This document shows, piece after piece, positions 1,816-59,780 of a DNA stretch of 64,000 nt (the first letter of the stretch is position 1; each line of letters starts with the position of its first letter). Below the pieces are notes generated by a model. It was not told the origin of the DNA, made no database searches, and was given only the letters and a program-made list of their open reading frames with translations. Source of the DNA: Nitrososphaerales archaeon (GTDB lineage: Archaea; Thermoproteota; Nitrososphaeria; Nitrososphaerales; JACPRH01); the NCBI GenBank assembly GCA_030754585.1, contig JASMAB010000001.1, forward strand, positions 6,523 to 70,522, read 5' to 3'. Position numbers and translations under genes: made by a program.

Positions 1816-2058
1816 TTGCCTACTTCATTTGTTCTTGTTACTAGTGATCCTGAGGTAGAGGAGGAACTCATGGAAGAACTAATAAAAGTTGAGGGAGTTA
1901 AAGAAGTTCACTCAGTCTATGGAATATATGACTTTATTGTGAAAGTTGAAGCAGAATCGTTGGAGGAATTGAAAAACACAATAACCTGGAAAGTTAGGAG
2001 ATTAAGCAAAGTTAAAGCAAGCGTGACAATGGTTGTAGCTCAGTCCAGAACATCCTAA
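1816..2058 (+). CDS. stand-alone Lrp/AsnC-type ligand-binding (RAM) domain protein
   Basis: 80 aa. The pattern VKEVHSVYGIYDFIVKVEAESLEELKNTI..KVKASVTMVV matches the RAM/AsnC C-terminal fold and there is no HTH. TTG start. Confidence 0.65.
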   Translation: MPTSFVLVTSDPEVEEELMEELIKVEGVKEVHSVYGIYDFIVKVEAESLEELKNTITWKVRRLSKVKASVTMVVAQSRTS

Positions 2059-2358: not shown

Positions 2359-3465
2359 TCATTTATAGAACTGATGCAGAGAATCAACTACGAACTTCAC
2401 ATCCAAATCACTTAGCTCTGGATGCAAAGGAAGCGAAAGAACCTCTCTAGATATCTGCTCAGTCAACGGGAGATTAAAATTATCTAAATTTAATGCTTTA
2501 TGTTTATGAAGAGGTTTGGGCCAAGAAACCAAAATCTCTATTCCTTCTTGAAGTAGATAGGCTACAAGTTCATCACGATTATCGGATCGAATCACATAGT
2601 TTTGATAGACATCATAAAAGTCACCTTGATCAGGTGGTGGAGGGAGTTGCAATGAAGCAAGGTCTGATAACCCTTTGTGATAGAGGTGAGCGATCTCACG
2701 TCTTCTTTCAATCCATTGTGGGAGATATTTTAGCTTAATATTTAGAATAGCAGCGTGAAGATTATCAAGACGACTATTGAATCCATGAAATAGAAATTCA
2801 CCAGTTTCTCTTTCTTGACCATGATCTCTAAGCAAAAATAATTTCTCTGCAGTCTCCTTATCATCTGTAACTATCATGCCTCCATCTCCTAGAGTTCCTA
2901 AGATTTTTGCAGGATAGAAACTGAAACAACCAGTCAAGCCAAAGCTACCTGCTCGTCGTTGCTTGTAACTTGCGCTTACTGCTTGGGCAGCATCTTCTAT
3001 TACAAGAAGTTCATGATCAGAAGCAATTTTCATTATCTTATCCATTTCGCAGATTCTGCCGTTTAGATGAACCGGGATAATTGCTTTAGTGTTTTCAGTG
3101 ATTGCTGCCACAATTTTGTTGTCATCAATATTATGGTCGTTATTGATATCAACAAGAATTGGTTTTGCGTTACACTGGAAAATGGTTGCAACTGTAGCCG
3201 CAAAGGTATGAGCAACAGTTATCACCTCAGCTCCTTCGGCAATATTAGCAGCTTTCAGGGACAAGAAAAGGGCATCTGTTCCGTTTGCAACACCTATTGC
3301 ATACTTTACACCTATAAATTCTGCGAAATTCTTTTCGAATTCTTGAAGATGCCTCCTAAGGATATAGTCACCACCAGAAAGCACTTCCTGAATAACGGCG
3401 TCAACTTCTCCCTTGATTTTTCTATAGTGTTTAGGAAAATCTACAAAACGGACCCGATAATCCAT
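2359..3465 (-). CDS. DegT/DnrJ/EryC1/StrS-family PLP-dependent sugar aminotransferase
   Basis: 368 aa. Motifs GVANGTDAL, VIEDAAQA and FSFYPAKILG (PLP lysine context) are typical of the family. Confidence 0.85.
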   Translation of the reverse strand: MDYRVRFVDFPKHYRKIKGEVDAVIQEVLSGGDYILRRHLQEFEKNFAEFIGVKYAIGVANGTDALFLSLKAANIAEGAEVITVAHTFAATVATIFQCNAKPILVDINNDHNIDDNKIVAAITENTKAIIPVHLNGRICEMDKIMKIASDHELLVIEDAAQAVSASYKQRRAGSFGLTGCFSFYPAKILGTLGDGGMIVTDDKETAEKLFLLRDHGQERETGEFLFHGFNSRLDNLHAAILNIKLKYLPQWIERRREIAHLYHKGLSDLASLQLPPPPDQGDFYDVYQNYVIRSDNRDELVAYLLQEGIEILVSWPKPLHKHKALNLDNFNLPLTEQISREVLSLPLHPELSDLDVKFVVDSLHQFYK

Positions 3466-3466
3466 T

Positions 3467-4444
3467 CTATTTTGGCACCAATTCTCTAATCTTTGAAACT
3501 ATCGTTTTCGCTTTAGGATAATAAACCGCTTCTAGGGGGGAGCTTGCTGGAGCAGGTGAATCAGGTAGTGAAACCCGCATAATTGGAGCATTCAAGTATT
3601 CGAATGCTTCACTTCCTACAATTGCTGAAACCTCTGCACCAATACCGGAACTTGGCCAACCGGCATCTACAATAATAAATCTACCAGTTTTTTTTACTGA
3701 ATTGATTAAGATTTGTTTATCTAGCGGTTTCAATGAACGTAGATCTATAACTTCCACATCAATTCCTTCATCCGCAAGGCTATCAGCAGCTTTGATTGCT
3801 TCAGTTACCATATAGGAACTTGCAGCCACTGTTATGTTTTTACCCTTTCTCCTTATCATCCCTTCGCCAATAGGAATAGAATATAATTCTTCAGGTACAT
3901 CATCTTCCAATTCGTATAACCAACGATCATCAATGTAGATAACAGGGTCATCATCCTCTACGGCAGAGACCAGAAGCCCCTTGGCATCGTAGGCCGTGCT
4001 TGGCATCACAACTTTAAACCCTGGAATGTGAGATAACATCGCCTGCAGACTCTGAGAATGCTGAGCAGCTTGTTCTCCACCTCTATTGATTATAGCCCAC
4101 ACTGTCAAAGGAACATTCAGCTGTCCACCGAACATATAATGCCAGCTCCCAGCGTGATTCACTAATTGGTCCATAGCATAGTACATAAAATCCATTCTTG
4201 GAAAAATCAGAATTGGACGCATAGCAGCCAATGCCGCACCGACTGCCACCCCCGTTATACCGTTCTCAGAAACTGGAGTATCGATAACTCGTCTAGAACC
4301 GAATTTATCTAAAAGACCATTAGTGGTTTGTCCAACATACCACGGGCTGGTGACCCCTTGACCAATTAAGAACACTCGAGGATCCTTCTTCATAAGTTGA
4401 TGTAGCGTCTGATTTATCGCTTGATTATACTGAATTTTTGGCAT
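3467..4444 (-). CDS. TPP-dependent 2-oxoacid dehydrogenase E1 component, beta-like subunit
   Basis: 325 aa. Transketolase-like pyrimidine-binding and C-terminal domains (VIDTPVSENGITGVAVGAALAGMRP-like, FKVVMPSTAYDAKGLL). It starts 18 bp after the alpha subunit ends. Confidence 0.85.
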   Translation of the reverse strand: MPKIQYNQAINQTLHQLMKKDPRVFLIGQGVTSPWYVGQTTNGLLDKFGSRRVIDTPVSENGITGVAVGAALAAMRPILIFPRMDFMYYAMDQLVNHAGSWHYMFGGQLNVPLTVWAIINRGGEQAAQHSQSLQAMLSHIPGFKVVMPSTAYDAKGLLVSAVEDDDPVIYIDDRWLYELEDDVPEELYSIPIGEGMIRRKGKNITVAASSYMVTEAIKAADSLADEGIDVEVIDLRSLKPLDKQILINSVKKTGRFIIVDAGWPSSGIGAEVSAIVGSEAFEYLNAPIMRVSLPDSPAPASSPLEAVYYPKAKTIVSKIRELVPK

Positions 4445-4462
4445 TAATGAATCTGCTCCAAA

Positions 4463-5452
4463 TCATTTCGCTTTGAAAACATTATCAAGTAGACTATTTT
4501 CACTCGGGAATGGACTTTTCTTTGCAAACATCAAGGACTCATCTACCTCTTTCTCAACTTCTCTCCGAATCTGAAGAAATTCTGATTTTGACAGAAAATT
4601 ACGACTCAACAATAGTTTTTCCAACTTCTTGATTGGGCCTTTCTCTTTCCAATACGATAATTCTTCTTTACTTCTGAGACCTGTTTCCAAATCATCATTA
4701 GGACCAACATGTCCTCGCCACCTGTAAGTCATACACTCAATCAAAGTGGGACCCTTTCCTCGGCGAGCATCTTTTACTGCCTTCTTGGCTACGTTAAAAA
4801 CTTCTATTACATCGTTCCCATTGACCTGAACACCACGCATACGAAATATGTTTGCTTTCTTCTGGATATCTGTATCAGCTAGATGATCCGAAATGTGGAC
4901 GTGAGTAGAGTAAAGGTTGTTTTCGCATACAAAGACAACGGGTAACTTTTTTAGTGCTGCAAAATTAAGTGATTCGTACCAAACTCCCTCATTAGTAGCA
5001 CCGTCACCGAAGAAAACAACCGAAACATTATCAGTTTTCTGAATTGAAAAAGCCAGAGCAGCTCCAACAGCAGGAGAAATAGATCCTGCAACAATTGCAG
5101 AGCTCCCGATAAAACCCACTGCTGGAAAAGAAAGATGCATAGATCCACCTCTGCCCTTTGAGCAGCCTGTCACCTTGCCGTAAAGTTCAGCCATCAAAGC
5201 ATTCAAGTTACCACCCTTAGCGACATAGTGACCATGAGAACGGTGTGAACTAAAAACATAATCATCTTTTCTTAGGGCATTACACACCCCTGTCGCCACA
5301 GCTTCTTGTCCTATGTATAGATGACAGGGACAGACAATTTCATTTTGCTGAATAAGGTTCCCAACTTTTTCCTCAAACAAACGGATTCTAAGCATCGTTT
5401 GATACATTGTTCGCAGGTTATTTGAGGATAAATCAACCGTTCTTTCAGTCAT
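4463..5452 (-). CDS. TPP-dependent 2-oxoacid dehydrogenase E1 component, alpha-like subunit
   Basis: 329 aa. TPP-binding motif GDGATNEG..(27 aa)..ENN, plus the YRWRGH segment typical of E1 alpha. Confidence 0.85.
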   Translation of the reverse strand: MTERTVDLSSNNLRTMYQTMLRIRLFEEKVGNLIQQNEIVCPCHLYIGQEAVATGVCNALRKDDYVFSSHRSHGHYVAKGGNLNALMAELYGKVTGCSKGRGGSMHLSFPAVGFIGSSAIVAGSISPAVGAALAFSIQKTDNVSVVFFGDGATNEGVWYESLNFAALKKLPVVFVCENNLYSTHVHISDHLADTDIQKKANIFRMRGVQVNGNDVIEVFNVAKKAVKDARRGKGPTLIECMTYRWRGHVGPNDDLETGLRSKEELSYWKEKGPIKKLEKLLLSRNFLSKSEFLQIRREVEKEVDESLMFAKKSPFPSENSLLDNVFKAK

Positions 5453-5470
5453 AAAAAAGAGCCTTCTTGC

Positions 5471-6433
5471 TCAAAGTGTGATTCGTTCTTCTGAACCAAA
5501 ATATTTGTATTGCTGAATGAATGTATTCAGCCCTTCTTTTATACCAATTTTTGGAGTCCACTCTAAAATCTCATTAGCTTTACCAGCGTTTGCAATTAGC
5601 CTGTCGACCTCCCCGATTCTTGGGGACACATTCACAGGCTTAAGGCTACCTTTTTTTCCGCTTAATTCAATAATCAAGTTTGCAAGATCTAAGATAGATA
5701 TTTCTTTACCACTTCCAAAATTAATCGGTTCTGGAAGTTTCTTATTATATTTAAAGAGCAGATCATAAGCTCGCACAACATCATCTATATGGGTATAATC
5801 ACGTGTCTGCAAACCATCTCCATAAACAATTGGGGGAAAATTACTTAAAATCCTTCTAGTAAATATTGAAATTACCCCACCATATCCGACAGATTTCTGT
5901 CTAGGCCCATAAACGTTAAACATCCGAGGAATAACCACGTTCAATCCATAAGTTTTAGCATATGCATAACATAGTCTATCAGCTGCAATTTTGCTTGCAC
6001 CGTAAGGGTGTGGAGCATTTAAAGGATGGTTTTCATCAATGGGTACATTCATTGCTGAACCATAGACTTCACTTGATGAGGCATGAATAATCTTTTTGAC
6101 ATCATAAAGTCTGGCCATTTCTAGGACATTTTGGGTTCCCATGATATTAATGTCAAAAGTAAGTTTAGGCTCGACATATGACCTATCCACATGGATTTGA
6201 GCAGCGAGATTAAATATGAAATCCACATCTTTTACCACTCGGTCTAAAAGATCAGAATTTCTAATATCTCCTTTTACAAGTTTAAAATTTTGAAAATCTA
6301 ATAAATGCTTAATATTTGTAAGGCTTCCACTTAGAAAATTGTCCATGCAGATCACTGTATGACCTTCTTTCACATACTTCTCACAAAGGCTACTTCCAAT
6401 AAAGCCGGCTCCACCAGTTATCAGTAACTTCAT
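5471..6433 (-). CDS. NAD-dependent NDP-sugar epimerase/dehydratase (extended SDR, UDP-glucuronate-decarboxylase/4,6-dehydratase-like)
   Basis: 320 aa. Motifs GGAGFIGS, DNFLSG..N, SSSEVYG, YGASK and CYAY..FNVYGPR. Confidence 0.85.
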   Translation of the reverse strand: MKLLITGGAGFIGSSLCEKYVKEGHTVICMDNFLSGSLTNIKHLLDFQNFKLVKGDIRNSDLLDRVVKDVDFIFNLAAQIHVDRSYVEPKLTFDINIMGTQNVLEMARLYDVKKIIHASSSEVYGSAMNVPIDENHPLNAPHPYGASKIAADRLCYAYAKTYGLNVVIPRMFNVYGPRQKSVGYGGVISIFTRRILSNFPPIVYGDGLQTRDYTHIDDVVRAYDLLFKYNKKLPEPINFGSGKEISILDLANLIIELSGKKGSLKPVNVSPRIGEVDRLIANAGKANEILEWTPKIGIKEGLNTFIQQYKYFGSEERITL

Positions 6434-6438
6434 CTAGT

Positions 6439-7554
6439 TCACCTTTTAGATAAAACCTCATAAAGGTTTTCCATTTTTGCCATTTCTGTCCGGTGATTTA
6501 GTCTCTTTTCAATGATAGCTTGATTAATTATACCAAATCTGGTTCTTTCTTCTTTATTCTCAAGTAAATAGATGATCTTTTCAGCCAATGATTCAATATC
6601 TTTACTTGTAAAAAGAAAACCATTAACCCCATTCTTCACCCATCTCTTATTATCTCCAAAATCTGTTATAATAACTGGTACACCACAAGCCATTGCTTCT
6701 GCTGTACTTGCTGCCAATCCTGCGTCTGATAAGGATGTAGATACATATATGTCAGCTGAGGCAACATATTTCGCAACTTCCTCGCTCGGGATTGACCCTA
6801 CAAAGTTCACATTCTTAGAGACTTTCAGTTTTTTAGTTAGAGCCCTCAGAAATACCCCTTGAGACCCTTCTCCAACAATTACAAACCTTGCTTTTGGAAC
6901 CTTTTTTAAAACTATTCTTACAGATTTAACAAAGGTTTCGATATTGTAGATAGGTTCAAGATTTCTAAGACTCATAATAATTGATGAATCAATAGCACCT
7001 AATCTTGCTCTTAATCCCATACTTCTTTGCTTTGGATTAAATTTCTGAGTATCTGTTCCAAAATATACCAAATGTATCTTTGAATGAATTGCCCCAAGTT
7101 CATCTAAAGCTTTTATCATATGTTCTGCATCACACGTAATAAGATCAGCTTTTTTCAAAGCATATTTCACCATATATCTGAGTATTCTAAATTGGTCAGG
7201 ATTAATCAAAATATCTGAACCCCAAGTAGTAAGTACCATTGGATGATAATTTACTAACGCTGCAATGAATCCATAGTGCGAAGCATAATGAGCATGCACC
7301 ACATCAGGTTTTTCGTCTGCCAATATTCGTCTAACACCATGGATGGAAACGGGGGAGAACACATATCTAAAAGCAGAATCTGCACTAGTCAAAGGCATTC
7401 GGATTCCACCCATTAGATTATACTGCTTAACACTTATTGTATCATTTATTTCACTTGTTATTGCAAATACGTCATGTCCTCTAAGCTTGAAGTAGTTGAT
7501 CCATCTTTCAGTGTGGCTCGACTTACAGTCAGCAAGATACGCGATTTTCATCAC
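6439..7554 (-). CDS. glycosyltransferase, GT-B fold (GT4-like)
   Basis: 371 aa. The C-terminal segment SLSDAGLAASTAEAMACGVPVIITDFGDN is typical of the GT4 EX7E region. Confidence 0.85.
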   Translation of the reverse strand: MMKIAYLADCKSSHTERWINYFKLRGHDVFAITSEINDTISVKQYNLMGGIRMPLTSADSAFRYVFSPVSIHGVRRILADEKPDVVHAHYASHYGFIAALVNYHPMVLTTWGSDILINPDQFRILRYMVKYALKKADLITCDAEHMIKALDELGAIHSKIHLVYFGTDTQKFNPKQRSMGLRARLGAIDSSIIMSLRNLEPIYNIETFVKSVRIVLKKVPKARFVIVGEGSQGVFLRALTKKLKVSKNVNFVGSIPSEEVAKYVASADIYVSTSLSDAGLAASTAEAMACGVPVIITDFGDNKRWVKNGVNGFLFTSKDIESLAEKIIYLLENKEERTRFGIINQAIIEKRLNHRTEMAKMENLYEVLSKR

Positions 7555-7668
7555 ATCACCATTTTTTTCTAACTGACCATAGATAATAGATGACCCATTT
7601 TAGAACGTTGTGATACTCTAGTAGAACTTGGAATTGTGTTTGACTTTATCGCCAACGCCCTTAAATGA

Positions 7669-9024
7669 ATGTTTTTATCTCAGCATCCCGTGCTGATGCA
7701 CTTTATGAAGAAGGTATTAATCATAACAGATCTGGTTCATGCAACACCTAGGATACCTAGAGTAGCAAAATATTTACCGGAATTCGGTTGGCAACCTATT
7801 ATCTTAACTACACCTTCATATATTGGACATAATCTCGGAATAAATGTCGAAAAGCTAGTTAAACAGAACCGAGTAATAGTAGTACCCTACCGCAATTATC
7901 TTAATCATTTCTTAGATATAACAAAAAAAATCTTTGGTTTTAATCCTCAAAAAAGTATTAGAAGACAAGCAGATAAACAGTTTGGCATTGACTCACCAAA
8001 AACATCTATGATCAGATTCCTCCTCAGGATCGTAAAAGAGGTCTCATACTATCCAGATCAATTTAGAGATTGGCGGAAATCTGCCATAAATGTGTGTAAT
8101 GACCTTATGCTAAAAGAAAACATAGACGCATTAATTAGTAGCTCATCACCAGTTACATCTCATATTATTGCTAAAGAATTTAAACAACAACACAAGATCC
8201 CATGGATAGCGGATCTAAGAGATCTTTGGTCGCAAAATCACAATTACCCATACAGCTCACTAAGGAATGTAATAGATAGAAATATTGAACTACGGACATT
8301 ATCACAAGCAGATACTTTGGTAACTGTTTCGGAACCATGGACAAAGAAATTAACACTACTTCATAAAGATAAGAAAGTATATACTATAACTAATGGATTC
8401 TATCCAGAAGAAAGTGTGAATTCACCAACTAATCTCACATCCAAATTCACAATTACGTATACAGGACAAATTTATGAAGAAAGACAAGATCCATCAAAAC
8501 TATTCGCTGCGCTAAGAGATTTGATTAATGAAAATTTGATCAATCCTCTGGAAATTGATGTAAGGTTTTATGGTAACGAAGTTGAATGGCTGACAAAAGA
8601 GACAGAAAAATATGGATTAACAAAAATAGTGAAACAATATGGGAGGGTCACTAGAAAAGTATCTATTGAAAGACAGAGAGAATCACAACTCTTACTGCTA
8701 CTAAACTGGGAAGATATCAGGGAAAAAGGAGTGTGCCCACTCAAGGTCTTTGAGTACCTTGCAGCACAAAGACCAATAATTGCCACAGGAGGATTTGGAC
8801 ATGATGTTATAGAAAGACTCCTTGATGAAACCAATGCCGGATTCTATGCCAAAAGGGAGACCATCAAGGAGATTCTCAAAGAAGCATATTCAGAATATAA
8901 GCTAAAAGGCGAAGTTGGTTACCGAGCAAGAACAGGGACAATCAATAGATATAGCTACCAGGAAAAAGCAAAGATGTTTGCGCAGATTCTAGATGATTCA
9001 TTAAAAACAAGAAATTATACATAG
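7669..9024 (+). CDS. glycosyltransferase, GT-B fold with enlarged N-domain
   Basis: 451 aa ORF. The likelier start is MKKVLIITD at 7705. The C-terminal PLKVFEYLAAQRPIIATGG is a GT1/GT4-type nucleotide-sugar binding segment. Confidence 0.7.
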   Translation: MFLSQHPVLMHFMKKVLIITDLVHATPRIPRVAKYLPEFGWQPIILTTPSYIGHNLGINVEKLVKQNRVIVVPYRNYLNHFLDITKKIFGFNPQKSIRRQADKQFGIDSPKTSMIRFLLRIVKEVSYYPDQFRDWRKSAINVCNDLMLKENIDALISSSSPVTSHIIAKEFKQQHKIPWIADLRDLWSQNHNYPYSSLRNVIDRNIELRTLSQADTLVTVSEPWTKKLTLLHKDKKVYTITNGFYPEESVNSPTNLTSKFTITYTGQIYEERQDPSKLFAALRDLINENLINPLEIDVRFYGNEVEWLTKETEKYGLTKIVKQYGRVTRKVSIERQRESQLLLLLNWEDIREKGVCPLKVFEYLAAQRPIIATGGFGHDVIERLLDETNAGFYAKRETIKEILKEAYSEYKLKGEVGYRARTGTINRYSYQEKAKMFAQILDDSLKTRNYT

Positions 9025-9092: not shown

Positions 9093-9839
9093 TCAAGAAT
9101 GAGGCTTTTTCTGAGATACCCATTTCTTATACATTGCATCCATCTTGGCAGCTCCCTCTACCAAAAAGTGATTTCTGCCAGTTAGTTTTAGGAAAATATT
9201 TGTATCTTTTGGGAGACATGTACCACCTATGCCATCTCTAGCTTCAAGAATGTTTACATTCCATTTTGTGTTACTAGCTCTTCTGACCTCTTCAAAATCT
9301 AGAGATAGATCTTCACAAACGATTCTTAGTTCCTCTGCAAACGCTATCTCCACAAACCGGTATGTGTTTTCAGTAAGTTTTGAAAGCTCAGCAGCCTCAA
9401 TATTAGAAACAGTATTCACAGGAATAGATAATTCATTATAAAACGTTTTGGCCTGAGATAAAGTATCTTTATCCACCGCTCCAAGAACACGTAATTGTTG
9501 GACACCGTGATTTTTTTGGTCTCCGTCCCAATATCTATGAGGACAATGAGCTATCTTTAGATCATGTTTTTCAGCTAGACTTCTACACAAACCAACCGGG
9601 ACAGTGCTCTCTATAAAAACCAAACTACCTGGACTAATGTTTGCACACACATCCGTGACGTTTTTGGTATTGACACAAATGACATAGATATCAGATTGTG
9701 CTACCGCAGTTGTTGTAGGAAATTCTTTAATGATTAAGGATCTTACATCAACACCGATTACTTGAAAACTTTTTTCTTTAATATGAAGGGCAGCTGGATA
9801 GCCGATAGTACCTAAACCAATTACACAAACTTTCTTCAA
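9093..9839 (-). CDS. short NDP-sugar dehydrogenase (UDP-glucose/GDP-mannose dehydrogenase family) lacking the C-terminal domain
   Basis: 248 aa. It has an N-terminal VIGLGTIGYP Rossmann motif and the catalytic-Cys motif GGTCLPKD. The protein ends about 40 aa after that motif. Confidence 0.7.
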   Translation of the reverse strand: MKKVCVIGLGTIGYPAALHIKEKSFQVIGVDVRSLIIKEFPTTTAVAQSDIYVICVNTKNVTDVCANISPGSLVFIESTVPVGLCRSLAEKHDLKIAHCPHRYWDGDQKNHGVQQLRVLGAVDKDTLSQAKTFYNELSIPVNTVSNIEAAELSKLTENTYRFVEIAFAEELRIVCEDLSLDFEEVRRASNTKWNVNILEARDGIGGTCLPKDTNIFLKLTGRNHFLVEGAAKMDAMYKKWVSQKKPHS

Positions 9840-10288
9840 CTATACCGCCAATTCAACTTTGCTGACATCAATTAATACTTTTAGATATATAGCTCTTAAC
9901 AATATCGCGATCCCAAAAACATGATAAGTATGTTGTGTGAACATGGGTTCAGACTGAGTGTTTTGGAAGAATATCTGTTTAACCGAACAACTGTCAAGTA
10001 TGTCTTCGATATACCGAAGTTATATATCTGAGTCCACGATGACAGCGACTAACTCGCACAAATAATTGAAAATGCGTATCAATGGGTACATATTATTCAC
10101 GATCTGGACAAGATTGCTAGTGTAATTTATGGGCACTACATGAAGGCACTTGAGTAGTAGTGAAAGTCTTTTACCCAGAGAGATTATGAGGGTCTACCGT
10201 AATTGATAGGTTGACGAAAAGGAGATAAACCATTGAAATAAAATTTTGTCGGTTTTTAGGAGTTCTAGAAAAATAGGATTGGAAGCGA

Positions 10289-11308
10289 TTGAGTAAAAGA
10301 AAGATCTTTGATGTAGCTCTACGAAAAATAACTATGACAAGATTAGGGTTATACCTAATTACGCCGCCTCTTTATTCACTCTCGATAGAGCCGACCAGCA
10401 GTTGCAACCTCGATTGTGTCATGTGTTATTCTAAGAAGGAGAAGAATGGGTTCATGAGCTGGTCATTATTCACAAAGATCATTGACGAAATTAAATCAAG
10501 AAAAGATATCGGCATCGGTTTAAATTTTAGTGGAGAGTCATTATTACATCCAAAATTTAAAGATATGCTAGAATACATCGCGTCAAGTGGGATACAGAAC
10601 ATCAGTTTAAACACCAATGGCCTTATTCTGACTTCGAAAATTGCTGAAACATTTCTGAACTGTTCAAAAGGCACGATGGTTTTTTCTATCGATGGTTTGG
10701 AGGAAACTTACAAAAAAATAAGGATAGGAAGCAACTACGAGAAAGTGATTCGAAATATTGAATTTTTACTACAGAGAAGAAAAGAAAAAGGAATATCAAA
10801 GCCGTATGCAGCAGTCAATCTAGTTAAGAGCAACCAAAGCCAGCAGGAGATTAACGATTACATTGCATATTGGATTGATAAAGTCGATTATGTTAGTACT
10901 GTAGAACAGCTGGGTCCTGATCTGAGAATTGTCTCGAAGAACGATGTTATCTCAAAGCAGCTGCAAAAGGGACGTATGCTCTGTCTATGGCCTTGGCGGT
11001 ACTTAGCTGTATGTTGGGATGGGCGCATCACTCTATGTTGCCATGATCTGGAAGGACGAGCCATCCTAGATGTCAATGCGAACGAAGGCATCAGTAAAAT
11101 CTGGGGAGGAGGTGAGTACAATAATGTCCGCTGGCAGCATTTCAAAAAAGATTTTTCATCGCTTGATCTCTGCCGGTCATGTGAAGCGTGGGTAGCCACA
11201 TATATCCCAAGTAAATTAAACAGATTAGACAATGGTATCTTTGTTTGGAGGAAAGGCCTGTCGACATATTATTCAAAAAGACCTGAATCGCTGGGCATCA
11301 AACCTTAA
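10289..11308 (+). CDS. radical SAM enzyme with C-terminal Cys-rich (SPASM/twitch-like) extension
   Basis: 339 aa. CNLDCVMC is a CX3CX2C cluster motif. The C-terminal cysteines are CLWPWRYLAVCWDGRITLCCHD and CRSCEAW. The start is TTG, with an alternative ATG at 10334. Confidence 0.8.
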   Translation: MSKRKIFDVALRKITMTRLGLYLITPPLYSLSIEPTSSCNLDCVMCYSKKEKNGFMSWSLFTKIIDEIKSRKDIGIGLNFSGESLLHPKFKDMLEYIASSGIQNISLNTNGLILTSKIAETFLNCSKGTMVFSIDGLEETYKKIRIGSNYEKVIRNIEFLLQRRKEKGISKPYAAVNLVKSNQSQQEINDYIAYWIDKVDYVSTVEQLGPDLRIVSKNDVISKQLQKGRMLCLWPWRYLAVCWDGRITLCCHDLEGRAILDVNANEGISKIWGGGEYNNVRWQHFKKDFSSLDLCRSCEAWVATYIPSKLNRLDNGIFVWRKGLSTYYSKRPESLGIKP

Positions 11309-11357
11309 GGGTGAACCTGCGTAATGTGTTATGAAGTAAAGGGAAAATGAAAGAATT

Positions 11358-12410
11358 ATGAAGATTTTACATGTGGGAATTTGGCAGGATGATGAGGTAG
11401 GTGAAGTGATGCTGGAGAAGGGATTATTACTAAATGGGCATGAAGTGTCCAGATTTGATTATCGTGGACTAGCCTCTAAATTTGGTATAGAAGGAATGAA
11501 CAACATGATAATAGACCAGGCTACAAAGATGAACTGCGAAATGGTATTCATCGGAAAAGGAGAATTAGTAAATAGAAAAACATTACATAAATTGAGGAAA
11601 AAAGGCATAATTGTTACATTATGGTATGGTGATTATAGGAAACCTCCGAATAATTGGTTAATAGATAATTTGCATGAAACTGACTTTTTCTTTTCAACAT
11701 CTGGTGGATCTACTTTGCAGTCATACTTTGAAAAAGGTTCTCCAGGAGTTGCCTCTTTTTTTATTGTGCCATCTGACCCTGAATTATCAATGAAATGGCG
11801 TTTTTACCCACGCGGTACAAAAGATATTGTATTCACTGGCTCGAATCATAATTTAGGAGGTTTTGGGATAGGCGGTCTAGAGAGGAATCAAACAATTGAC
11901 TATTTAACAACTAGAGATGACGTAGAGTTTTGGGGATATTATAAAAGCACTAATAACTATAAAAATCAATTAATGAGATTTTTGGAAAGACTTACACAAA
12001 GTAGGTTTCACAGTAAATGGATTAGCGGTGATGAATACATTCGTGCAATAATTAGCGCGAAGATTGGAGTGGGAGTTTCTTTAGTGCAAAATATTCAGAA
12101 ATATTCAAGCGTGAGATTGCAACATTATTTGATGTTCGGAACATTTTATTTGGCTTGGCACTTTCCACAAATTGAAGAATTGTTCAATGTTGGTAGGGAA
12201 TTGGTTTGTTTTCACAACATAAAAGAACTTGAGGATAATATTGATTATTATTTAGTGAATGACAAAGAAAGAGAAACTATCGCAAAGAATGGACAATCAG
12301 CTATGATCTACCGCTACAATACTAAAAATATTATGGGGATGATACTAGATGTTATCGAAAAGGGCAGTTCTCAGAGATTTCCATGGATTGAAATTTTATC
12401 GAATAAGTGA
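11358..12410 (+). CDS. glycosyltransferase-like protein (CgeB / Glyco_trans_1_2-like)
   Basis: 350 aa. The C-terminal part (ELVCFHNIKELEDNIDYYLVNDKERETIAKNGQSAMIYRYN) resembles CgeB-type GT-B C-domains. This is a family-level call only. Confidence 0.55.
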   Translation: MKILHVGIWQDDEVGEVMLEKGLLLNGHEVSRFDYRGLASKFGIEGMNNMIIDQATKMNCEMVFIGKGELVNRKTLHKLRKKGIIVTLWYGDYRKPPNNWLIDNLHETDFFFSTSGGSTLQSYFEKGSPGVASFFIVPSDPELSMKWRFYPRGTKDIVFTGSNHNLGGFGIGGLERNQTIDYLTTRDDVEFWGYYKSTNNYKNQLMRFLERLTQSRFHSKWISGDEYIRAIISAKIGVGVSLVQNIQKYSSVRLQHYLMFGTFYLAWHFPQIEELFNVGRELVCFHNIKELEDNIDYYLVNDKERETIAKNGQSAMIYRYNTKNIMGMILDVIEKGSSQRFPWIEILSNK

Positions 12411-12600
12411 AATTATGAAGATACTGCTGAATAAAAGTCCTGCATCAATGGAGTTCTTGATTAGTTCGTGTTTGTTTTCCTTTTTATATCCTGAATATTT
12501 TTTACAGTAATTTCTGTCAAGACTTCATAAAAGTATGTTTTACTTCACATATCAGGCAACTCATTGAGACTTGAGAGACCACCAAAAAACCAAAGAATTA

Positions 12601-12996
12601 TTACCGCTTCGTCCACTTTTCGAGTAAAGCAGCTGCCTCACTATTCTTATCTTCTATAAGGTAAGTAAGGGCTGTAGCGAAATCAGTGTAGAAGGGATTC
12701 TGTTTTGTTGCAACTGATACTTCTCCGGGAAATACGTCAGATCGCCTCATATACCAGTGACCTAATAGCGTAATCGTTAATGGATAGGAGATAATGAATA
12801 GTGTGAGGAAGATAGTGTAGTTAGGAAAAGCAACTTCCAGAGATGGGATGCTCTCGATAAGGAGGTAATACCACAAGGCCGTTTGAGTGACGAACCAAGG
12901 AATGTAAATGAGTAAACTGTGCCCTGTGGTAAAGTAGAGCTTGACCCTACCAATGAATTTTTGATTCACTACTACCACTCTAACCCTTTTCGCCAA
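12601..12996 (-). CDS. small membrane protein, paralogue A (unknown function)
   Basis: 131 aa with two hydrophobic helices and a soluble tail. It is clearly homologous to the neighbouring gene (GRVKLYFTTGHSLLIYIPWFVTQT.. versus GRLKLYFTSGHSLVLYIPWFITQT..). Confidence 0.6.
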   Translation of the reverse strand: MAKRVRVVVVNQKFIGRVKLYFTTGHSLLIYIPWFVTQTALWYYLLIESIPSLEVAFPNYTIFLTLFIISYPLTITLLGHWYMRRSDVFPGEVSVATKQNPFYTDFATALTYLIEDKNSEAAALLEKWTKR

Positions 12997-13028
12997 CTTG
13001 GCAGAATATTAGTGACATTGAACATCAT

Positions 13029-13412
13029 TTACTCAGTTGACCATTTTTCAAGAATCTTGAGTGCTTCATGATTCTTACCTTCAGCGTAGCATTTGACCGC
13101 TTTTGCTAAGTCTGTATTATAGGGGTTCTGTCTTATACTTGTAGACGATTCGGAGGCGTACAGACTGGTTCGCTTCAAATACCAGTAACCCAATAAGATG
13201 GCGCCAGCCGGGTAAATAGTACTGAAGAGTATGAAGAAGATATAGAAACGTGAAAAATAAATCTCTAGAACTGGGGCATTCTGGATAACAAGATAGTAAG
13301 TTACAGTCGTCTGTGTGATGAACCAAGGGATGTAGAGAACAAGACTGTGCCCACTGGTAAAGTAGAGCTTAAGTCTGCCAAAAACCCGTTCAATATTCTT
13401 TTTATCCACCAT
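13029..13412 (-). CDS. small membrane protein, paralogue B (unknown function)
   Basis: 127 aa tandem paralogue of 12601..12996. Shared motifs include KQNP(F/Y), GKN.EA and LEKW. Confidence 0.6.
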   Translation of the reverse strand: MVDKKNIERVFGRLKLYFTSGHSLVLYIPWFITQTTVTYYLVIQNAPVLEIYFSRFYIFFILFSTIYPAGAILLGYWYLKRTSLYASESSTSIRQNPYNTDLAKAVKCYAEGKNHEALKILEKWSTE

Positions 13413-13524
13413 TCTACCGCCACCTAAACCACCGTAGACTCCTTATCATGTCATTAATAAATCAGAGATAAGATAATAAGGTTTTATTATGCATAACGAA
13501 TAGGTATGTGAAACTAGTAACATA

Positions 13525-14529
13525 ATGAAAATAATACATATTGGAAATATTGCAAACGTGTCTTATCTTCTCTGTCATGGTCTAACTACAGAATATAATA
13601 TTGATACCATGCTAGCAGTTAAAGATGAACCGATAAATTTTCCCTTTATTTACAGTAAGAACAATAATCCATATCAAGTTAACTTTTTTGTTTTCAAGAC
13701 ACAACGAGATTACTTCAATTTACTATCTGAAGCGTTAACCGCTGACATTCTGCAATTTCATGGAAGAATAAAAGCTAAACAGTTACCTCTGGAATTATTA
13801 CATCCAAGGAAAATAAGGCATTTTCATGGCTCCGATATTCGAAACCAGTCTTGGAGAAAGAACATATTGTTAAAGACAGGTTCAAGCATAGTCAGAGAAA
13901 AAGTATTGATTTCAACATTTGATTTGGTTAATTCTTGGAATGATGCACAATATCTACCAAACCCTGTAGATCCAATTTTTTTCAAAGCCTTTTCTTCACA
14001 GGACGACTATTCCATTTTCTTACCTGCCAGATTTGAAAACCAAACAAAAGGAATTCAATTCGCATTTGAAGCTTGGGACAGAATTAAAAGATTGAATAAA
14101 GAAGTGAAATTGAAAGTAATATGTTGGGGAGAGGATCTGGAATATTATCGGGTGAAGTATAAGAATGATGAAAGGATAAAGTGGATACAAACATTAAATC
14201 AATCACAAATGGCGATTGAGATGGTGAATAGCTCAATAATTTGGGGGCAATTCAAGATCATGTCCTTAGTTGGATTAATTGAATTGGAGGCCATGGCATT
14301 AGCAAAAGTAGTAATGATGAAATTTGAGGAACCCAAGATAGCGGAGTATAAGCCACCAATATGTAATGTTAATACACCTAAGGACCTCGCTCAGAAGACT
14401 TTGCAACTTTTGGGAGATGAAGGCCGCAGGAATAGAATAGGTCAACAGGCTCAAGAATGGGTAAAGAAAAATCATAGTTTAAAGAATGTAACACGTAAAC
14501 TTGTAGATATTTACAATAACCTAATTTAA
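13525..14529 (+). CDS. glycosyltransferase, GT-B fold (GT4-like)
   Basis: 334 aa. LPNPVDPIFF sits at the GT4 NGVD position, and GLIELEAMALAKVVM is in the EX7E-region context. Confidence 0.6.
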   Translation: MKIIHIGNIANVSYLLCHGLTTEYNIDTMLAVKDEPINFPFIYSKNNNPYQVNFFVFKTQRDYFNLLSEALTADILQFHGRIKAKQLPLELLHPRKIRHFHGSDIRNQSWRKNILLKTGSSIVREKVLISTFDLVNSWNDAQYLPNPVDPIFFKAFSSQDDYSIFLPARFENQTKGIQFAFEAWDRIKRLNKEVKLKVICWGEDLEYYRVKYKNDERIKWIQTLNQSQMAIEMVNSSIIWGQFKIMSLVGLIELEAMALAKVVMMKFEEPKIAEYKPPICNVNTPKDLAQKTLQLLGDEGRRNRIGQQAQEWVKKNHSLKNVTRKLVDIYNNLI

Positions 14530-26796: not shown

Positions 26797-28056
26797 CTAC
26801 AGGATTATTCCAGAACCAATGAGCCGCCATCTATCAGCAATTCGTCGAGTAACTGCGACCCTACTTCCTGGGGCTGCGCAAATGGGTCGTTTAAGGTCAA
26901 CGAAAATAATATTCCCATTTGTGGATCTAACTGGGCCCAATGTTACAGCGGTTCCTATATTCAAACGTAAAACCTCACCTTGCCGTATCTTTTCAACTTT
27001 GATCAAGTCTGGAGCACCCACAGCCATATCTAATAGCTGAGTTTCAATCTTGAGTGAATTATGCACAGGTGGGAGTTCGTTTGGAAGCCCAACTACGGAT
27101 CCAAGTAGACTATCTGCTCTTGTAATAGTTGGATCCAATGTTGTCCCTAAAGCAACTAATCCTCCGGTCTTTACATTCTCCACAAGTCCAACACTTGTCC
27201 CTAAACTAGAGATAGTTGTGGTAATGGGATTATAATTTTTGGTCTTTTCATCTTGGAATCCAGGTTTAAGAACGATTTCGTCACCAACATTGAATTCCCC
27301 CTCTGTAAGGGTTCCACCAATAACTCCTCCATGAATTTGGGTGATTTTCATACCAGGTCGATTAACGTCAAATGATCTTAGAGTCTGCATGAGTGGTTTC
27401 TTTTTTGTTTGTCGTTTTGGGGTGGGAATGTTTTCTTCAATCGCACCTATTAGTGCATCTATATTCAATTTATGATGACCAGATACAGGGATTATTGGAG
27501 CATTTTCAGCAACTGTTCCCTTTGCAAACTTCTTGATAGCTAGATAGTTTCTATCAGCTTCCTGATCATTTACAAGATCTAGTTTGTTCTGGGCTATCAC
27601 AATATGTTTCATACCTAGCATTTGTAGACTCAGAAGGTGCTCTCTTGTTTGAGGTTGAGGAACATCTTCATCAGCAGCTATGGTTAGTATTGCACCGTTC
27701 ATAACGGCTGCACCTGATAGCATAATGGCCATGAGACTTTCGTGACCAGGTGTATCTACAAAACTAATCACCCGTGATAATCTGCCCTCTTTCCCACAGT
27801 TAGGGCAAGACGTTGTAGTTGAGTAGTTTTTTGGTGGATCACATCCTCCACATTTGTAAAAGGCTGCGTCAGCGTATCCTACCTTAATGGTGATTCCGCG
27901 CCGCAATTCTTCACTATGTGCAGATGTCCAGACCCCAGTTATTCCTTCAACTAGTGTAGTTTTTCCGTGATCTACGTGACCTATGGCGCCAATATTAACT
28001 TCAGGTTGACGGGGTAGCCTATTTTTTTGAAGTGATGTATTTGCCTTGGTCGTCAT
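26797..28056 (-). CDS. eif2g: translation initiation factor 2 subunit gamma (aIF2-gamma)
   Basis: 419 aa. Motifs GHVDHGKTT, DTPGHE, NKLD and the zinc knuckle CGGC..CPNC. Confidence 0.95.
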   Translation of the reverse strand: MTTKANTSLQKNRLPRQPEVNIGAIGHVDHGKTTLVEGITGVWTSAHSEELRRGITIKVGYADAAFYKCGGCDPPKNYSTTTSCPNCGKEGRLSRVISFVDTPGHESLMAIMLSGAAVMNGAILTIAADEDVPQPQTREHLLSLQMLGMKHIVIAQNKLDLVNDQEADRNYLAIKKFAKGTVAENAPIIPVSGHHKLNIDALIGAIEENIPTPKRQTKKKPLMQTLRSFDVNRPGMKITQIHGGVIGGTLTEGEFNVGDEIVLKPGFQDEKTKNYNPITTTISSLGTSVGLVENVKTGGLVALGTTLDPTITRADSLLGSVVGLPNELPPVHNSLKIETQLLDMAVGAPDLIKVEKIRQGEVLRLNIGTAVTLGPVRSTNGNIIFVDLKRPICAAPGSRVAVTRRIADRWRLIGSGIIL

Positions 28057-34797: not shown

Positions 34798-36189
34798 TTG
34801 CCCAAAGCAATGGTAATGGTCAATCGTAAGAGATTATTCGGCACTAGCGGAATAAGAGGAATTCCTGGCAAAGATTTGACATTAGATGTTATAACCGAAC
34901 TAAGTCAAGCGATTGGAACTTTCTTTAAAGAAGGCCCGGCTCTTGTAGGATATGATGGAAGAGATTCCAGCCCCGCAATTTCGAAAGCTGTTACAGCAGG
35001 ATTGATGAGTGTTGGTTTAGATGTTGGGGAATCAGAATTGCTTCCAACTCCCGCACTTCAATTCTATGTTAGAAAAATGGAGTACAAAGTGGGGGTAATG
35101 ATAACTGCGTCACATAATCCCTCAAGATACAATGGTGTAAAAGTTTCAGGTGCCGATGGAATAGACGTAACTCGTGACGAAGAAAAGATTATTGAAGATA
35201 TTTTTTATAAAAAAAAGTTTAACTTAGCAGATTGGAAATCTGTAGGTACCTCAGTCAAGGAGACACAGGCAGTATCATTCTACATAGATGGAATAATATC
35301 AGTCATCAACAAGGACAAGATACAAGAAAAGAACTTCCAAGTAATAGTTGATCCAGGTAATGGAGCCCAATGTATTTCAGCACCTTATCTGCTTGAGAAG
35401 CTAAATTGCAGACCAATATCACTCAATGCTGAAGTAGATGGAACATTCCCTGGAAGAGGTGCCGAACCAACTCCTGAAGTGTTGAATAGCCTATCAGAGA
35501 CCGTTAAGAATAATGGAGCAGATATGGGTGTAGCATATGATGGGGATGGTGATAGAAGTCTCTTTTGTGATGAAAAAGGAGTTGTTCACTACGGAGATCG
35601 GTCAGCGGCATTACTTGTTGAATACATTCTTTCTGAAAATCCTGGCGCAACGATAGTAACCACAGTAAGTGCTTCCAAAGCTATAGACGATATAGTGAAT
35701 GAACATAAGGCCAAGATTTACAAAACAAAAGTAGGAAGCGTGGATGTCTCAAATGCTATGATTGAACAGGATGCTCTATTCGGTTTAGAAGAGAACGGCG
35801 GATGCTTCTATGCGCCGCACATCCCTGTAAGAGATGGAGCTATGTCCACAGCACTAATTCTCGAAGCTTTGGCAAAGAGTAAGAGTTCTCTTTCTGAGAT
35901 GCTAAGTAGCCTCCCTAAATATTTTCAAAAGAAGTCCAAGTTTGATTGTGTAAAAGAGTTAATGCCGCAATTAATGGAGAATATTGAGGGACAAATAAAT
36001 GCAGATGTAGAACGAATTGATGGACTGAAAATATGGGAAGATAACAATTCTTGGATACTTCTAAGACCAAGTGGCACTGAGCCTGTAATCAGAGTATTTG
36101 CGGAATCGAACCAAGAATCCAAACTGAAAAAAATGATAGATGAATATTCAAATTTAGTTAAAGATGTTCTCAACCGTTATAATAATTAG
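34798..36189 (+). CDS. phosphohexomutase (phosphoglucosamine/phosphomanno/phosphoglucomutase family), paralogue 1
   Basis: 463 aa. It has the active-site loop TASHNP, the metal loop DGDGDR and the sugar loop EENGG. The true start is probably at an internal Met (MVMVNRKRLFGTSGIRG). Confidence 0.85.
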   Translation: MPKAMVMVNRKRLFGTSGIRGIPGKDLTLDVITELSQAIGTFFKEGPALVGYDGRDSSPAISKAVTAGLMSVGLDVGESELLPTPALQFYVRKMEYKVGVMITASHNPSRYNGVKVSGADGIDVTRDEEKIIEDIFYKKKFNLADWKSVGTSVKETQAVSFYIDGIISVINKDKIQEKNFQVIVDPGNGAQCISAPYLLEKLNCRPISLNAEVDGTFPGRGAEPTPEVLNSLSETVKNNGADMGVAYDGDGDRSLFCDEKGVVHYGDRSAALLVEYILSENPGATIVTTVSASKAIDDIVNEHKAKIYKTKVGSVDVSNAMIEQDALFGLEENGGCFYAPHIPVRDGAMSTALILEALAKSKSSLSEMLSSLPKYFQKKSKFDCVKELMPQLMENIEGQINADVERIDGLKIWEDNNSWILLRPSGTEPVIRVFAESNQESKLKKMIDEYSNLVKDVLNRYNN

Positions 36190-59694: not shown

Positions 59695-59780
59695 CTTCAT
59701 TATTGAGCATAACATCTCCAAAAAAATATTTTATCCAAACTAATAAAATGCATTTTGGAACAATAATTCCGTAGTAATGT

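Follow-up and report, generated by a model that had tools for sequence, protein, structure and literature searches.

Five intact genes are transcribed in the same direction from the minus strand at one end of the 64 kb stretch of archaeal DNA that was analysed (the window). In the direction of transcription they encode a retaining-type GT4 glycosyltransferase (6439–7554; 370–371 residues; Pfam Glycos_transf_1 and Glyco_trans_4_2), an extended short-chain dehydrogenase/reductase (SDR; 5471–6433; 320 residues; GDP_Man_Dehyd and Epimerase), an E1α-like thiamine diphosphate (ThDP)-binding subunit (4463–5452; 329 residues; E1_dh, 253 bits), an E1β-like subunit (3467–4444; 325 residues; Transket_pyr and Transketolase_C) and a DegT-family PLP-dependent aminotransferase (2359–3465; 368 residues; DegT_DnrJ_EryC1, 366 bits). 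The gaps between them, from the DegT side to the GT4 side, are 1, 18, 18 and 5 bp. The list of open reading frames, with families assigned by Pfam and NCBIfam, bears out the closely packed arrangement described in the initial annotation, except that the GT4 gene, whose presence and family stand, more likely starts with the ATG at 7551 than with the GTG at 7554. An AT-rich region of 114 bp (7555–7668), presumed to hold the operon promoter, separates the GT4 gene from a divergently oriented second glycosyltransferase gene, and a T-rich tract on the minus strand (ctttgatttcttttc; 2321–2335), ∼25 nt past the DegT stop codon, resembles an archaeal oligo-T terminator and would mark the 3′ end of the operon. 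Comparison with two relatives gave dN/dS values of 0.07–0.20 for the five genes, all of which are under purifying selection.

The second glycosyltransferase gene (7669–9024, plus strand) lies outside the interval considered in the initial annotation and encodes a GT-B/GT4-like protein of 451 residues with weak Pfam matches to Glyco_transf_4 and Glyco_trans_1_4. It accompanies the module, with orthologues (44–57% identity) in at least 22 related loci of all architectures described below, whether archaeal, from Dehalococcoidia, or of the aldo-keto reductase or phosphoglycosyltransferase type. Several glycosyltransferase genes lie near the module, a relative carries an S-layer (SlaA-like) gene ∼5 kb from its copy, and bacterial versions are found with Wzz and phosphoglycosyltransferase genes.

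E1α contains the intact ThDP motif noted initially (GDGATNEG...ENN, residues 149–156 and 177–179, with GDG at 149–151 and NN at 178–179) and keeps the catalytic residues His44 and His248, while E1β keeps the cofactor-activating Glu60 and the catalytic His129. A Pfam scan of all large open reading frames in the window revealed no E2, E3 or lipoyl gene, and a six-frame scan of the same 64 kb found no E2 catalytic (DHRxxDG), E3 redox or lipoyl motif. The description of the pair as an orphan thus applies to the window; the host belongs to a non-ammonia-oxidising lineage of Nitrososphaerota, probably one reported to possess lipA/lipB and pyruvate dehydrogenase (PDH), and a true PDH complex together with lipoate synthesis may be encoded elsewhere in that lineage.

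The gene neighbourhood was compared across 88 distinct archaeal and bacterial loci related to the operon, in 46 of which the downstream flank could be read. The gene directly after E1β is an orthologous DegT (53–91% identity) in 43 of these 46 and an aldo-keto reductase (AKR) in the other three; an E2 gene follows E1β in none of them, and no E2, E3 or lipoyl motif was found in any of the 88. Adjacency to sugar genes, which the initial annotation had asked to see conserved in relatives, is kept in every readable locus (DegT or AKR in 46/46); these come from two phyla of Archaea and no fewer than two of Bacteria. E1α always precedes E1β, and the two are fused into a single reading frame in one locus (L116). 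Directly upstream of E1α there is an orthologous SDR (56–91% identity) in 37 loci, which in most cases has a GT4 orthologue (43–77% identity) directly upstream of it, and a Polysacc_synt_2/PglF-type UDP-GlcNAc 4,6-dehydratase in five; in a third type, a PglC-type phosphoglycosyltransferase lies upstream and takes over the role of GT4, and PglF is located after DegT. Since the dehydratase is exchanged among loci in this way, the constant requirement of the module appears to be a 4-keto-6-deoxy-HexNAc. In the three AKR-type loci (L089, L098 and L169) the order is E1α–E1β–AKR; two of them (L098 and L169) contain no DegT gene anywhere, making E1α/E1β independent of amination, and the enzyme after E1β must act on something made by E1α/E1β. 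In the relatives the next gene usually encodes a methyltransferase, the type of which tracks the tailoring enzyme: class I after DegT, FkbM-type after AKR.

On balance, we consider it probable that the operon is a self-contained cassette that makes and transfers one unusual branched sugar for a cell-surface glycan. We infer the substrates, branch position, amination target and destination of the sugar as follows. The SDR would oxidise and dehydrate an NDP-HexNAc, probably UDP-GlcNAc, to a 4-keto-6-deoxy sugar. E1α/E1β would decarboxylate pyruvate and add the resulting hydroxyethylidene-ThDP carbanion to the C-4 ketone, giving a tertiary alcohol with an acetyl branch, the side-chain ketone of which DegT would convert to an amine, leaving an α-aminoethyl branch; with an AKR instead of DegT, the three AKR-type loci would yield a hydroxyethyl branch. 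GT4, predicted to transfer the modified sugar, would move it onto the glycan together with the conserved GT4-like neighbour. The best NCBIfam match of GT4 is BshA (128 bits, below the cut-off), a UDP-GlcNAc-using enzyme. The initial suggestion of a C-branched and/or aminated sugar for an archaeal surface glycan is supported by these comparisons and can be refined, most likely, to amination of the branch ketone.

The proposed logic has precedents. The initial annotation treated two-carbon transfer by such E1 pairs as a proposal, and the chemistry is better established than it allowed: in vitro characterisation of KbDH-α/β, an αKADH2-type pair from kibdelomycin/amycolamicin biosynthesis, showed that it joins pyruvate to analogues of keto-sugars, and in kibdelomycin the branch ketone is transaminated to give the α-aminoethyl group of amycolose. 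An acetyl branch set on a keto-sugar and then transaminated is the same logic as that proposed here. Compared by their described chemistry, the two systems differ in that KbDH belongs to an actinomycete antibiotic cluster, branches a deoxyhexose at C-3 and yields an amine that is acylated with a pyrrole acid, whereas here an archaeal operon with its own glycosyltransferase would serve a cell-surface glycan, its E1 pair probably accepts a C-4 keto 6-deoxy-HexNAc, and in its relatives a methyltransferase usually comes next. Pau11/Pau12 (Plm8/Plm9) of paulomycin and AviB1/AviB2 of avilamycin are likewise E1α/E1β pairs without E2/E3 and attach a two-carbon branch from pyruvate to C-4 of 4-keto deoxysugars; the evidence for them is solely genetic, their substrates are dTDP-deoxysugars and they serve Streptomyces secondary metabolism. 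In paulomycin the acetyl branch set by Pau11/Pau12 is reduced by Pau7, an AKR, and the AKR-type loci have the corresponding genes in the same order. The operon itself has DegT where paulomycin has the AKR, and its likeness to the Pau and Avi pairs is drawn from described function. The AviB1/AviB2-type interpretation offered initially is corroborated by the loci with AKR for DegT and by those with a PglF-type enzyme for the SDR. In bacterial LPS and LOS, sugars with acyl branches are made by YerE/YerF (yersiniose), ErwE and MMAR_2332; here too a ThDP-dependent enzyme adds an activated acyl group to a 4-keto NDP-sugar, the branch is then tailored and the product serves a cell-surface glycan, but enzymes of the YerE type consist of a single chain, belong to the decarboxylase/acetolactate synthase superfamily and are not homologous to E1α/E1β. 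Finally, PglF–PglE–PglD–PglC pathways to bacillosamine and AAT-type 2-acetamido-4-amino-2,4,6-trideoxyhexoses share with the module an adjacent dehydratase and DegT and, with its bacterial versions, a small PglC-type phosphoglycosyltransferase. The module differs in placing E1α/E1β between the phosphoglycosyltransferase and the aminotransferase and in lacking a PglD-type acetyltransferase, and the operon in having GT4 instead of the phosphoglycosyltransferase and a DegT that is not PglE-like by sequence.

The aminotransferase is the step at which a different product is most conceivable. DegT contains the PLP lysine (in SFYPAKILG), and its nearest solved structures are 7B0D, 7N63, QdtB, WbpE and DesV, of which the named ones are ring C-3 aminotransferases, so that sequence similarity gives no hint of a side-chain ketone substrate. 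E1α/E1β might thus branch the sugar while DegT aminates ring C-3 or C-4, leaving an intact acetyl branch beside a ring amine, or the order or position of the steps might differ, as with a C-3 branch like that of kibdelomycin; E1-type enzymes are known to set branches at either C3 or C4, and in two loci (L005 and L006) the module is followed by weak cupin matches, which might be 3,4-ketoisomerases. We regard this as unlikely. Branching at C-4 leaves no ring ketone and ring amination would require a second oxidase or isomerase, none of which is conserved in the module; cupins are absent from the 64 kb window and from most related loci; and the slot shared by DegT and the AKR suggests that both act on the same carbonyl. 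Most likely, DegT aminates the ketone that the acetyl branch carries and not a ring carbon.

Less probable still is that the acceptor is a 4-keto-pentose, made by an SDR acting as a UXS/ArnA-type oxidative decarboxylase on a UDP-hexuronic acid, with the remaining pathway unchanged. The active site of the SDR (SSSEVYG...YGASK) retains the dehydratase/decarboxylase glutamate that is missing in 4-epimerases, although the top PDB match carries a 4-epimerase annotation. Its S-S-E...Y...K motif fits both UXS/ArnA-type decarboxylases and GMD/LegB-type dehydratases, the match to human UXS reaches 163 bits, and a UDP-sugar 6-dehydrogenase gene (9093–9839; Pfam and NCBIfam) lies close by, with a similar gene in L087. 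The copy in the window, however, is truncated, and the enzymes that replace the SDR in other loci are PglF/Polysacc_synt_2-type 4,6-dehydratases. Among NCBIfam models, the LegB-type 4,6-dehydratase (235 bits) and dTDP-glucose 4,6-dehydratase (209 bits) score highest, both below their cut-offs, and the former far exceeds the UXS/ArnA models (72–77 bits). The SDR is accordingly predicted to be an NDP-HexNAc 4,6-dehydratase producing the 4-keto-6-deoxy acceptor.

That the two subunits form an ordinary catabolic E1 of a pyruvate, acetoin or branched-chain 2-oxoacid dehydrogenase, with E2/E3 elsewhere and placed among sugar genes by accident, seems very improbable. The operon E1 shares with these enzymes the fold, the α2β2 pair, the ThDP motif and the catalytic residues, including both histidines that serve reductive acetylation of lipoamide, so that its residues are compatible with a dehydrogenase role too. 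E1α is ∼40–46% identical to E2-linked E1α, databases annotate the proteins of the operon's family as K00161 (PDH E1α) and E1β exceeds the cut-off of NCBIfam subfamily model NF006667 (346.8 versus 321); the lipoate and PDH genes reported for the probable host lineage would also suit such a role. E1α, on the other hand, falls below the cut-off of the PDH equivalog TIGR03182 (349.8 versus 393.85), and accident is argued against by the linkage to dehydratase and DegT/AKR, conserved in Archaea and Bacteria alike (46/46 loci), and by the lack of E2, E3 and lipoyl motifs from all 88 loci of the family. The initial annotation had asked for a phylogeny against catabolic E1s, and in an E1α tree glycan-linked E1α sequences (the operon's family and others) separate from all E2/E3-linked E1α with 100/100 bootstrap support, E2/E3 genes adjoining the E1 genes in most of the latter loci; the operon's own family forms a clade in just 22/100 replicates. 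In true E1p, two active-site loops, inner and outer, control access of the lipoyl domain. These lipoyl-engaging loops are altered in common across the glycan-linked E1 sequences: the E1α signature residues Pro42, His184, Pro251 and Asp254 lie inside or beside them, and in E1β GE(E/D)V is changed to GQGV..WY and two arginines (Arg83 and Arg121) are gained near the active site, adjoining His129. From these features, E1α/E1β is most likely a sugar-branching ThDP carboligase of the αKADH2 type and not a dehydrogenase.

We give as little credence to a role in the service of the aminotransferase, either removing the 2-oxoacid co-product to drive transamination or acylating the newly formed amine as a substitute for a PglD-type acetyltransferase, as the bacillosamine-like phosphoglycosyltransferase-type loci with E1α/E1β but no acetyltransferase might suggest, because AKR-type loci retain E1α/E1β without any aminotransferase, N-acylation from hydroxyethyl-ThDP requires an oxidant that the module does not encode and L004 carries its own GNAT acetyltransferase gene after DegT. 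The branched-sugar cassette is favoured by the conserved linkage, the exchange of dehydratases, the AKR loci, the precedents, the methyltransferase pattern, the phylogeny, the signature substitutions, the catalytic integrity, the selection on the genes and the glycan context.

Branching by E1α/E1β in actinomycete antibiotics and the transaminated branch of kibdelomycin amycolose are already known. No archaeal glycan with such a branched sugar is known in the literature, and the sole glycoproteomics study of Nitrososphaerota reported sugars other than the one proposed. A 2025 review assigns the branched sugars of LPS to YerE-type enzymes and those of secondary metabolites to E1α/E1β-type enzymes, a divide that the operon module would straddle. 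What would be new is the archaeal host, the role in a cell-surface glycan and a large family, labelled PDH E1 in annotations, that may carry out chemistry previously known solely from actinomycete antibiotics.

Five closely packed minus-strand genes make up the operon: a DegT aminotransferase (2359–3465), E1β (3467–4444), E1α (4463–5452), an extended SDR (5471–6433) and a GT4 glycosyltransferase (6439–7554), separated in that order by 1, 18, 18 and 5 bp. The ORF list reproduces the boundaries proposed in the initial annotation, and Pfam and NCBIfam searches bear out the predicted family of every gene, with an E1_dh domain in E1α and Transket_pyr and Transketolase_C domains in E1β. The ThDP motif of E1α (GDGATNEG…ENN) is intact, as had been reported. 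The position of the GT4 gene stands, but its start codon needs revision: the 5′ end reads GTG-ATG-AAA, so translation probably starts at the ATG at 7551 rather than at 7554. A T-rich tract can be read in the sequence after the DegT stop codon. Comparison with two relatives gave dN/dS values of 0.07–0.20 in all five genes, indicating purifying selection. A divergently transcribed GT4-like gene (7669–9024) is counted as part of the system, since orthologues with 44–57% identity are found in at least 22 loci of every architecture.

Homologue look-ups, a genome scan and a metagenome scan yielded at least 88 distinct related loci with E1α identities of 54–91%, in hosts that include Nitrososphaerota, Bathyarchaeia, Dehalococcoidia and Acidobacteriota. 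Among the MAGs with the cassette are GCA_030745655.1 and GCA_023481325.1. The scan of the genome collection with E1α gave no thaumarchaeal relatives among the matches listed, though such relatives exist, and is no gauge of the spread of the cassette in Nitrososphaerota. Neighbouring genes were typed by panel BLAST, and downstream counts rest on the 46 loci with enough downstream sequence. The adjacency to sugar genes is kept throughout: a DegT aminotransferase or an aldo-keto reductase (AKR) lies directly 3′ of E1β in 46 of 46 readable loci, this being an orthologous DegT (53–91% identity) in 43 and an AKR in three (L089, L098 and L169). On the 5′ side of E1α, an orthologous SDR is found in 37 loci, a Polysacc_synt_2/PglF-type dehydratase in five and a PglC-type phosphoglycosyltransferase in ten, where the PglF-type dehydratase is often 3′ of DegT. 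No E2, E3 or lipoyl motif was found in the 88 family loci listed. In L116 (6977–9004), one 675-residue ORF, naturally fused or produced by an assembly artefact, covers both E1α and E1β and precedes DegT and a methyltransferase, and in L088 (10088–10845) a toxin–antitoxin-like pair (UPF0175/DUF3368) separates E1α from E1β in an otherwise intact module.

A methyltransferase commonly accompanies the tailoring enzyme, usually of class I after DegT and of the FkbM type after the AKR. At 1652–2358 the window lacks the class I methyltransferase that follows DegT in most related loci. Between DegT and ATP sulfurylase, which together with a NUDIX gene is a conserved neighbour in relatives, there is only an 80-residue AsnC-type ligand-binding ORF (1816–2058, plus strand). 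PDB matches for the methyltransferases that follow DegT are generic class I structures with no diagnostic likeness to TylM1 or DesVI, and N-methylation by these enzymes is a guess.

In a neighbour-joining tree, E1α does not cluster with catabolic E1s; a superclade of glycan-linked sequences (including those of loci L010–L013, L014, L017, L021–L022, L031–L032 and L049) is split from all E2/E3-linked sequences at 100/100 bootstrap. The window family as a clade of its own has a bootstrap value of 22/100, so that robustness is reached only at the wider superclade. Relatives with 39–46% identity mostly adjoin an E2 catalytic motif, a lipoyl motif or an E3. Locus L014 had been a candidate for a lipoyl-linked member on the strength of a loose lipoyl motif, but was rejected, as its E1αβ genes are followed by an LPG_synthase_TM protein and a GT2 with no E2. 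Among curated models of PDH E1, E1α scores 349.8 against TIGR03182 (cut-off 393.85), and E1β scores 323 against the equivalog NF008854 (cut-off 454) and passes NF006667, a model informative at the subfamily level only (346.8; cut-off 321).

The catalytic and ThDP-binding residues αHis44, αHis248, βGlu60 and βHis129 and the GDG…NN motif are all kept, which shows a pair that should be active and does not indicate its substrate; with everything retained, this check does not separate a ligase from a dehydrogenase. Glycan-linked and E2-linked E1s differ at other positions. In E1α, the residue equivalent to human Phe61 is Pro in 100% of glycan-linked sequences, human Gly201 in the inner loop is replaced by a His that is invariant in the window family, and two residues, with an invariant Asp, are inserted in the outer loop just past the catalytic His. 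In E1β, the motif GE(E/D)V becomes GQGV…WY in glycan-linked proteins, and two arginines are new, at human positions 82 and 120. The second of these lies in the loop that leads up to the catalytic His, and both may bind a nucleotide diphosphate. The canonical inner and outer loops that engage the lipoyl domain are thus not kept in E1α. In the Geobacillus E1p the lipoyl domain enters under the control of these two loops, whose ordering may keep carboligation from occurring as a side reaction (PMC2663715).

Other glycan-linked E1α/β pairs (42–49% identity) occur in different sugar contexts, at L011 (4420–13450), L021, L032 and L049; L011 encodes HldE-like heptose activation, a GMD-like SDR, a TylC3-like C-methyltransferase and a ketoreductase, and several Alphaproteobacteria have the order E1α–E1β–DegT–SDR. 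The signature residues are common to these pairs, which points to a far broader range of branched sugars. The plasmid search found no family member (at least 54% identity) in any cultured organism; its top match, from Novosphingobium (49% identity), carries no annotation and has no panel sugar genes close by. On the Streptomyces griseofuscus plasmid pSGRIFU1 (L172, 11992–17522), an E1α/E1β pair adjoins an NRPS condensation-domain protein and an acyl carrier protein in a secondary-metabolite cluster; here an E1 pair lacking an E2 appears to serve a purpose other than sugar chemistry.

The partner enzymes bear on the substrate. The SDR motif SSSEVYG…YGASK keeps the Glu found in 4,6-dehydratases and in UXS/ArnA-type decarboxylases and absent in 4-epimerases, and the top curated model is a LegB-type HexNAc 4,6-dehydratase. 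The GT4 is most similar to BshA, which uses UDP-GlcNAc. A 4-keto-6-deoxy sugar derived from a UDP-HexNAc is indicated, since the SDR swaps with PglF-type UDP-GlcNAc 4,6-dehydratases and the GT4 is BshA-like. DegT has its PLP lysine, and its nearest named relatives of solved structure are C-3 aminotransferases, which are closer than C-4 enzymes; its closest PDB structure is 7B0D, for which no publication was found. In L089 the catalytic tetrad of the AKR is intact, and the side-chain reductase MtmW is among the PDB matches of this AKR. A role for E1αβ in serving DegT, either by removing its co-product or by donating an N-acyl group, is ruled out by the AKR-type loci, two of which (L098 and L169) have no aminotransferase at all.

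Several known systems share parts of this arrangement. The bacillosamine pathway (PglF/PglE/PglD/PglC) includes an N-acetyltransferase and a phosphoglycosyltransferase, whereas the window has neither and carries the E1α/β pair in addition. YerE-type branching enzymes are single chains with a decarboxylase/acetolactate-synthase fold, whereas the window proteins have E1_dh and transketolase-like domains. The E1 components of pyruvate, branched-chain 2-oxoacid and acetoin dehydrogenases usually adjoin a lipoylated E2 and an E3, and the window and the family loci listed have none of these. The closest parallel is with alphaKADH2, the E1α/E1β-type ThDP enzymes that branch sugars in actinomycete antibiotics (AviB1/B2, Pau11/12, AlmDI/DII and KbDH-α/β). 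These have the same two-subunit domain makeup, lack E2 and E3 and work within an NDP-sugar pathway that gives a keto-sugar, as do the window and the 88 family loci listed, with an SDR or PglF-type dehydratase adjoining. They also have an enzyme alongside that tailors the branch ketone, as is predicted for the window family (DegT or AKR in 46/46). The likeness of the window family to the studied members lies in this description, and the sequence clustering shown is with other glycan-linked pairs.

Sugar branching by AviB1/B2, Pau11/12 and the aldgamycin and kosinostatin enzymes rests on genetic evidence, and KbDH-α/β from the kibdelomycin pathway couples pyruvate to keto-sugar analogues in vitro. 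In paulomycin the AKR Pau7 reduces the branch ketone; in kibdelomycin this ketone is transaminated, giving amycolose, an α-aminoethyl-branched sugar. The branching logic proposed here is therefore already known from actinomycete E1α/β pairs. A 2025 review in which archaea are never mentioned links E1α/β-type enzymes with secondary metabolites and gives cell-surface sugars to the YerE-type enzymes, which are unrelated to them, and the sole glycoproteomics study of Nitrososphaerota describes different sugars and no E1. What the present case adds is an archaeal host, a proposed surface-glycan role, a fixed module architecture and a large family from uncultured organisms that is annotated as PDH E1α (K00161).

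Genes for aIF2γ, aIF5B and ribosomal protein S6e mark the window as archaeal, and the closest E1α relatives come from marine Nitrososphaerota MAGs. The aIF2γ (26797–28056) is 88–95% identical to uncultured mesopelagic sequences and about 65% identical to clusters that contain Ca. Nitrosopolaris and Nitrosopumilales, which are true ammonia oxidizers. These identities place the host in a different Nitrososphaerota lineage from the Nitrosopumilales-type ammonia oxidizers, and it may belong to the heterotrophic marine (pSL12-like) lineage. Unlike marine ammonia oxidizers, heterotrophic marine Nitrososphaerota are reported to have lipA/lipB and pyruvate dehydrogenase (PMC13374868). An argument that the host lacks lipoate was dropped for these reasons, and the description of the E1 pair as an orphan is likewise limited: it holds for the 64 kb window, where Pfam searches of all large ORFs and a six-frame motif scan found no E2, E3 or lipoyl protein, but not as a genome-wide claim. 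In a relative with 74% aIF2γ identity, aIF2γ and the cassette share one contig, as in the window, which indicates vertical inheritance of the cassette within the lineage.

Beyond the operon, 9093–14529 holds about 5.5 kb of genes additional to those of loci L001–L003, between the GT4-like gene and threonine synthase, suggesting a hypervariable glycosylation island. They comprise a truncated UDP-sugar 6-dehydrogenase, a radical SAM/SPASM protein (10289–11308), two glycosyltransferase-like genes and two unknown ORFs. In the dehydrogenase (9093–9839, minus strand, 248 residues), the match to the NAD-binding domain is confined to the initial ∼38 residues, the central domain also matches, the C-terminal domain is missing, and the gene looks to be decaying. 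Two phosphoglucomutase/phosphomannomutase paralogues are near neighbours (34798–36189, plus strand; 37154–38488, minus strand) and are possibly sugar-activation genes feeding glycan synthesis. Further along are tandem PmbA/TldD-family metallopeptidase genes (56677–59427, plus strand; 466 and 449 residues) and a 94 nt tRNA gene (59602–59695, plus strand; Rfam tRNA, 50.5 bits) to which ARAGORN assigned no anticodon and which is probably an intron-containing archaeal tRNA.

The conserved linkage and the separate E1 phylogeny support the initial reading of the operon as a branched-sugar pathway. In the proposed scheme, the SDR would generate a 4-keto sugar; E1αβ would decarboxylate pyruvate and transfer the two-carbon unit to C-4, giving an acetyl-branched tertiary alcohol; and the branch ketone, on which we infer that the tailoring enzymes act, would be converted to an amine by DegT or to an alcohol by the AKR, before glycosyltransferases move the modified sugar onto a glycan. 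Prediction of the E1 pair as a sugar-branching carboligase carries high confidence, and that of a HexNAc substrate, a C-4 branch and an aminoethyl product moderate confidence, both judged from sequence. The destination is probably a surface glycan, given the many glycosyltransferase genes nearby, an S-layer gene about 5 kb away in a relative and the Wzz and phosphoglycosyltransferase genes of bacterial versions.

The predicted residue, of about 230.127 Da with an aminoethyl branch or 231.111 Da with a hydroxyethyl branch, would be a new surface-glycan sugar in archaea and bacteria. To our knowledge, the glycan chemistry of Nitrososphaerota is almost unknown. We also know of no experimental structure of a sugar-branching E1α/β, and the window family holds many low-GC members that look soluble and could serve structural and biocatalytic studies of how tertiary alcohols are formed. 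A sorting rule for sugar-branching and dehydrogenase E1s follows from the signatures: E1α has Pro at human Phe61 and the outer-loop insertion with its invariant Asp, E1β has Arg at human 82 and 120, and E1β is followed by DegT or an AKR and in no case by E2. The E1α homologue P0009 and related proteins are publicly annotated as 'pyruvate dehydrogenase E1 component alpha subunit' (COG1071, K00161). With K00161/K00162 assigned to such pairs, a pyruvate dehydrogenase may be inferred in error when the metabolism of uncultured archaea and Chloroflexota is reconstructed.

Tentatively, and with somewhat less than an even chance in our estimation, a marine non-ammonia-oxidizing Nitrososphaerota lineage, along with Bathyarchaeia, Dehalococcoidia, Acidobacteriota and numerous further uncultured organisms, may decorate its surface with a C-4 α-aminoethyl-branched 6-deoxy-HexNAc, often N-methylated, made by an E1-type ThDP carboligase and a DegT transaminase. 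If so, Archaea would gain their first C-acyl-branched sugar, and E1α/β-type branching enzymes, so far tied to antibiotics, would for the first time be seen to work on primary cell-envelope glycans; they would form a large clade, now annotated as pyruvate dehydrogenase E1, that is recognizable by its signature residues. Sugar branching of the E1α/β type would then reach beyond actinomycete antibiotics to the cell envelopes of both prokaryotic domains.
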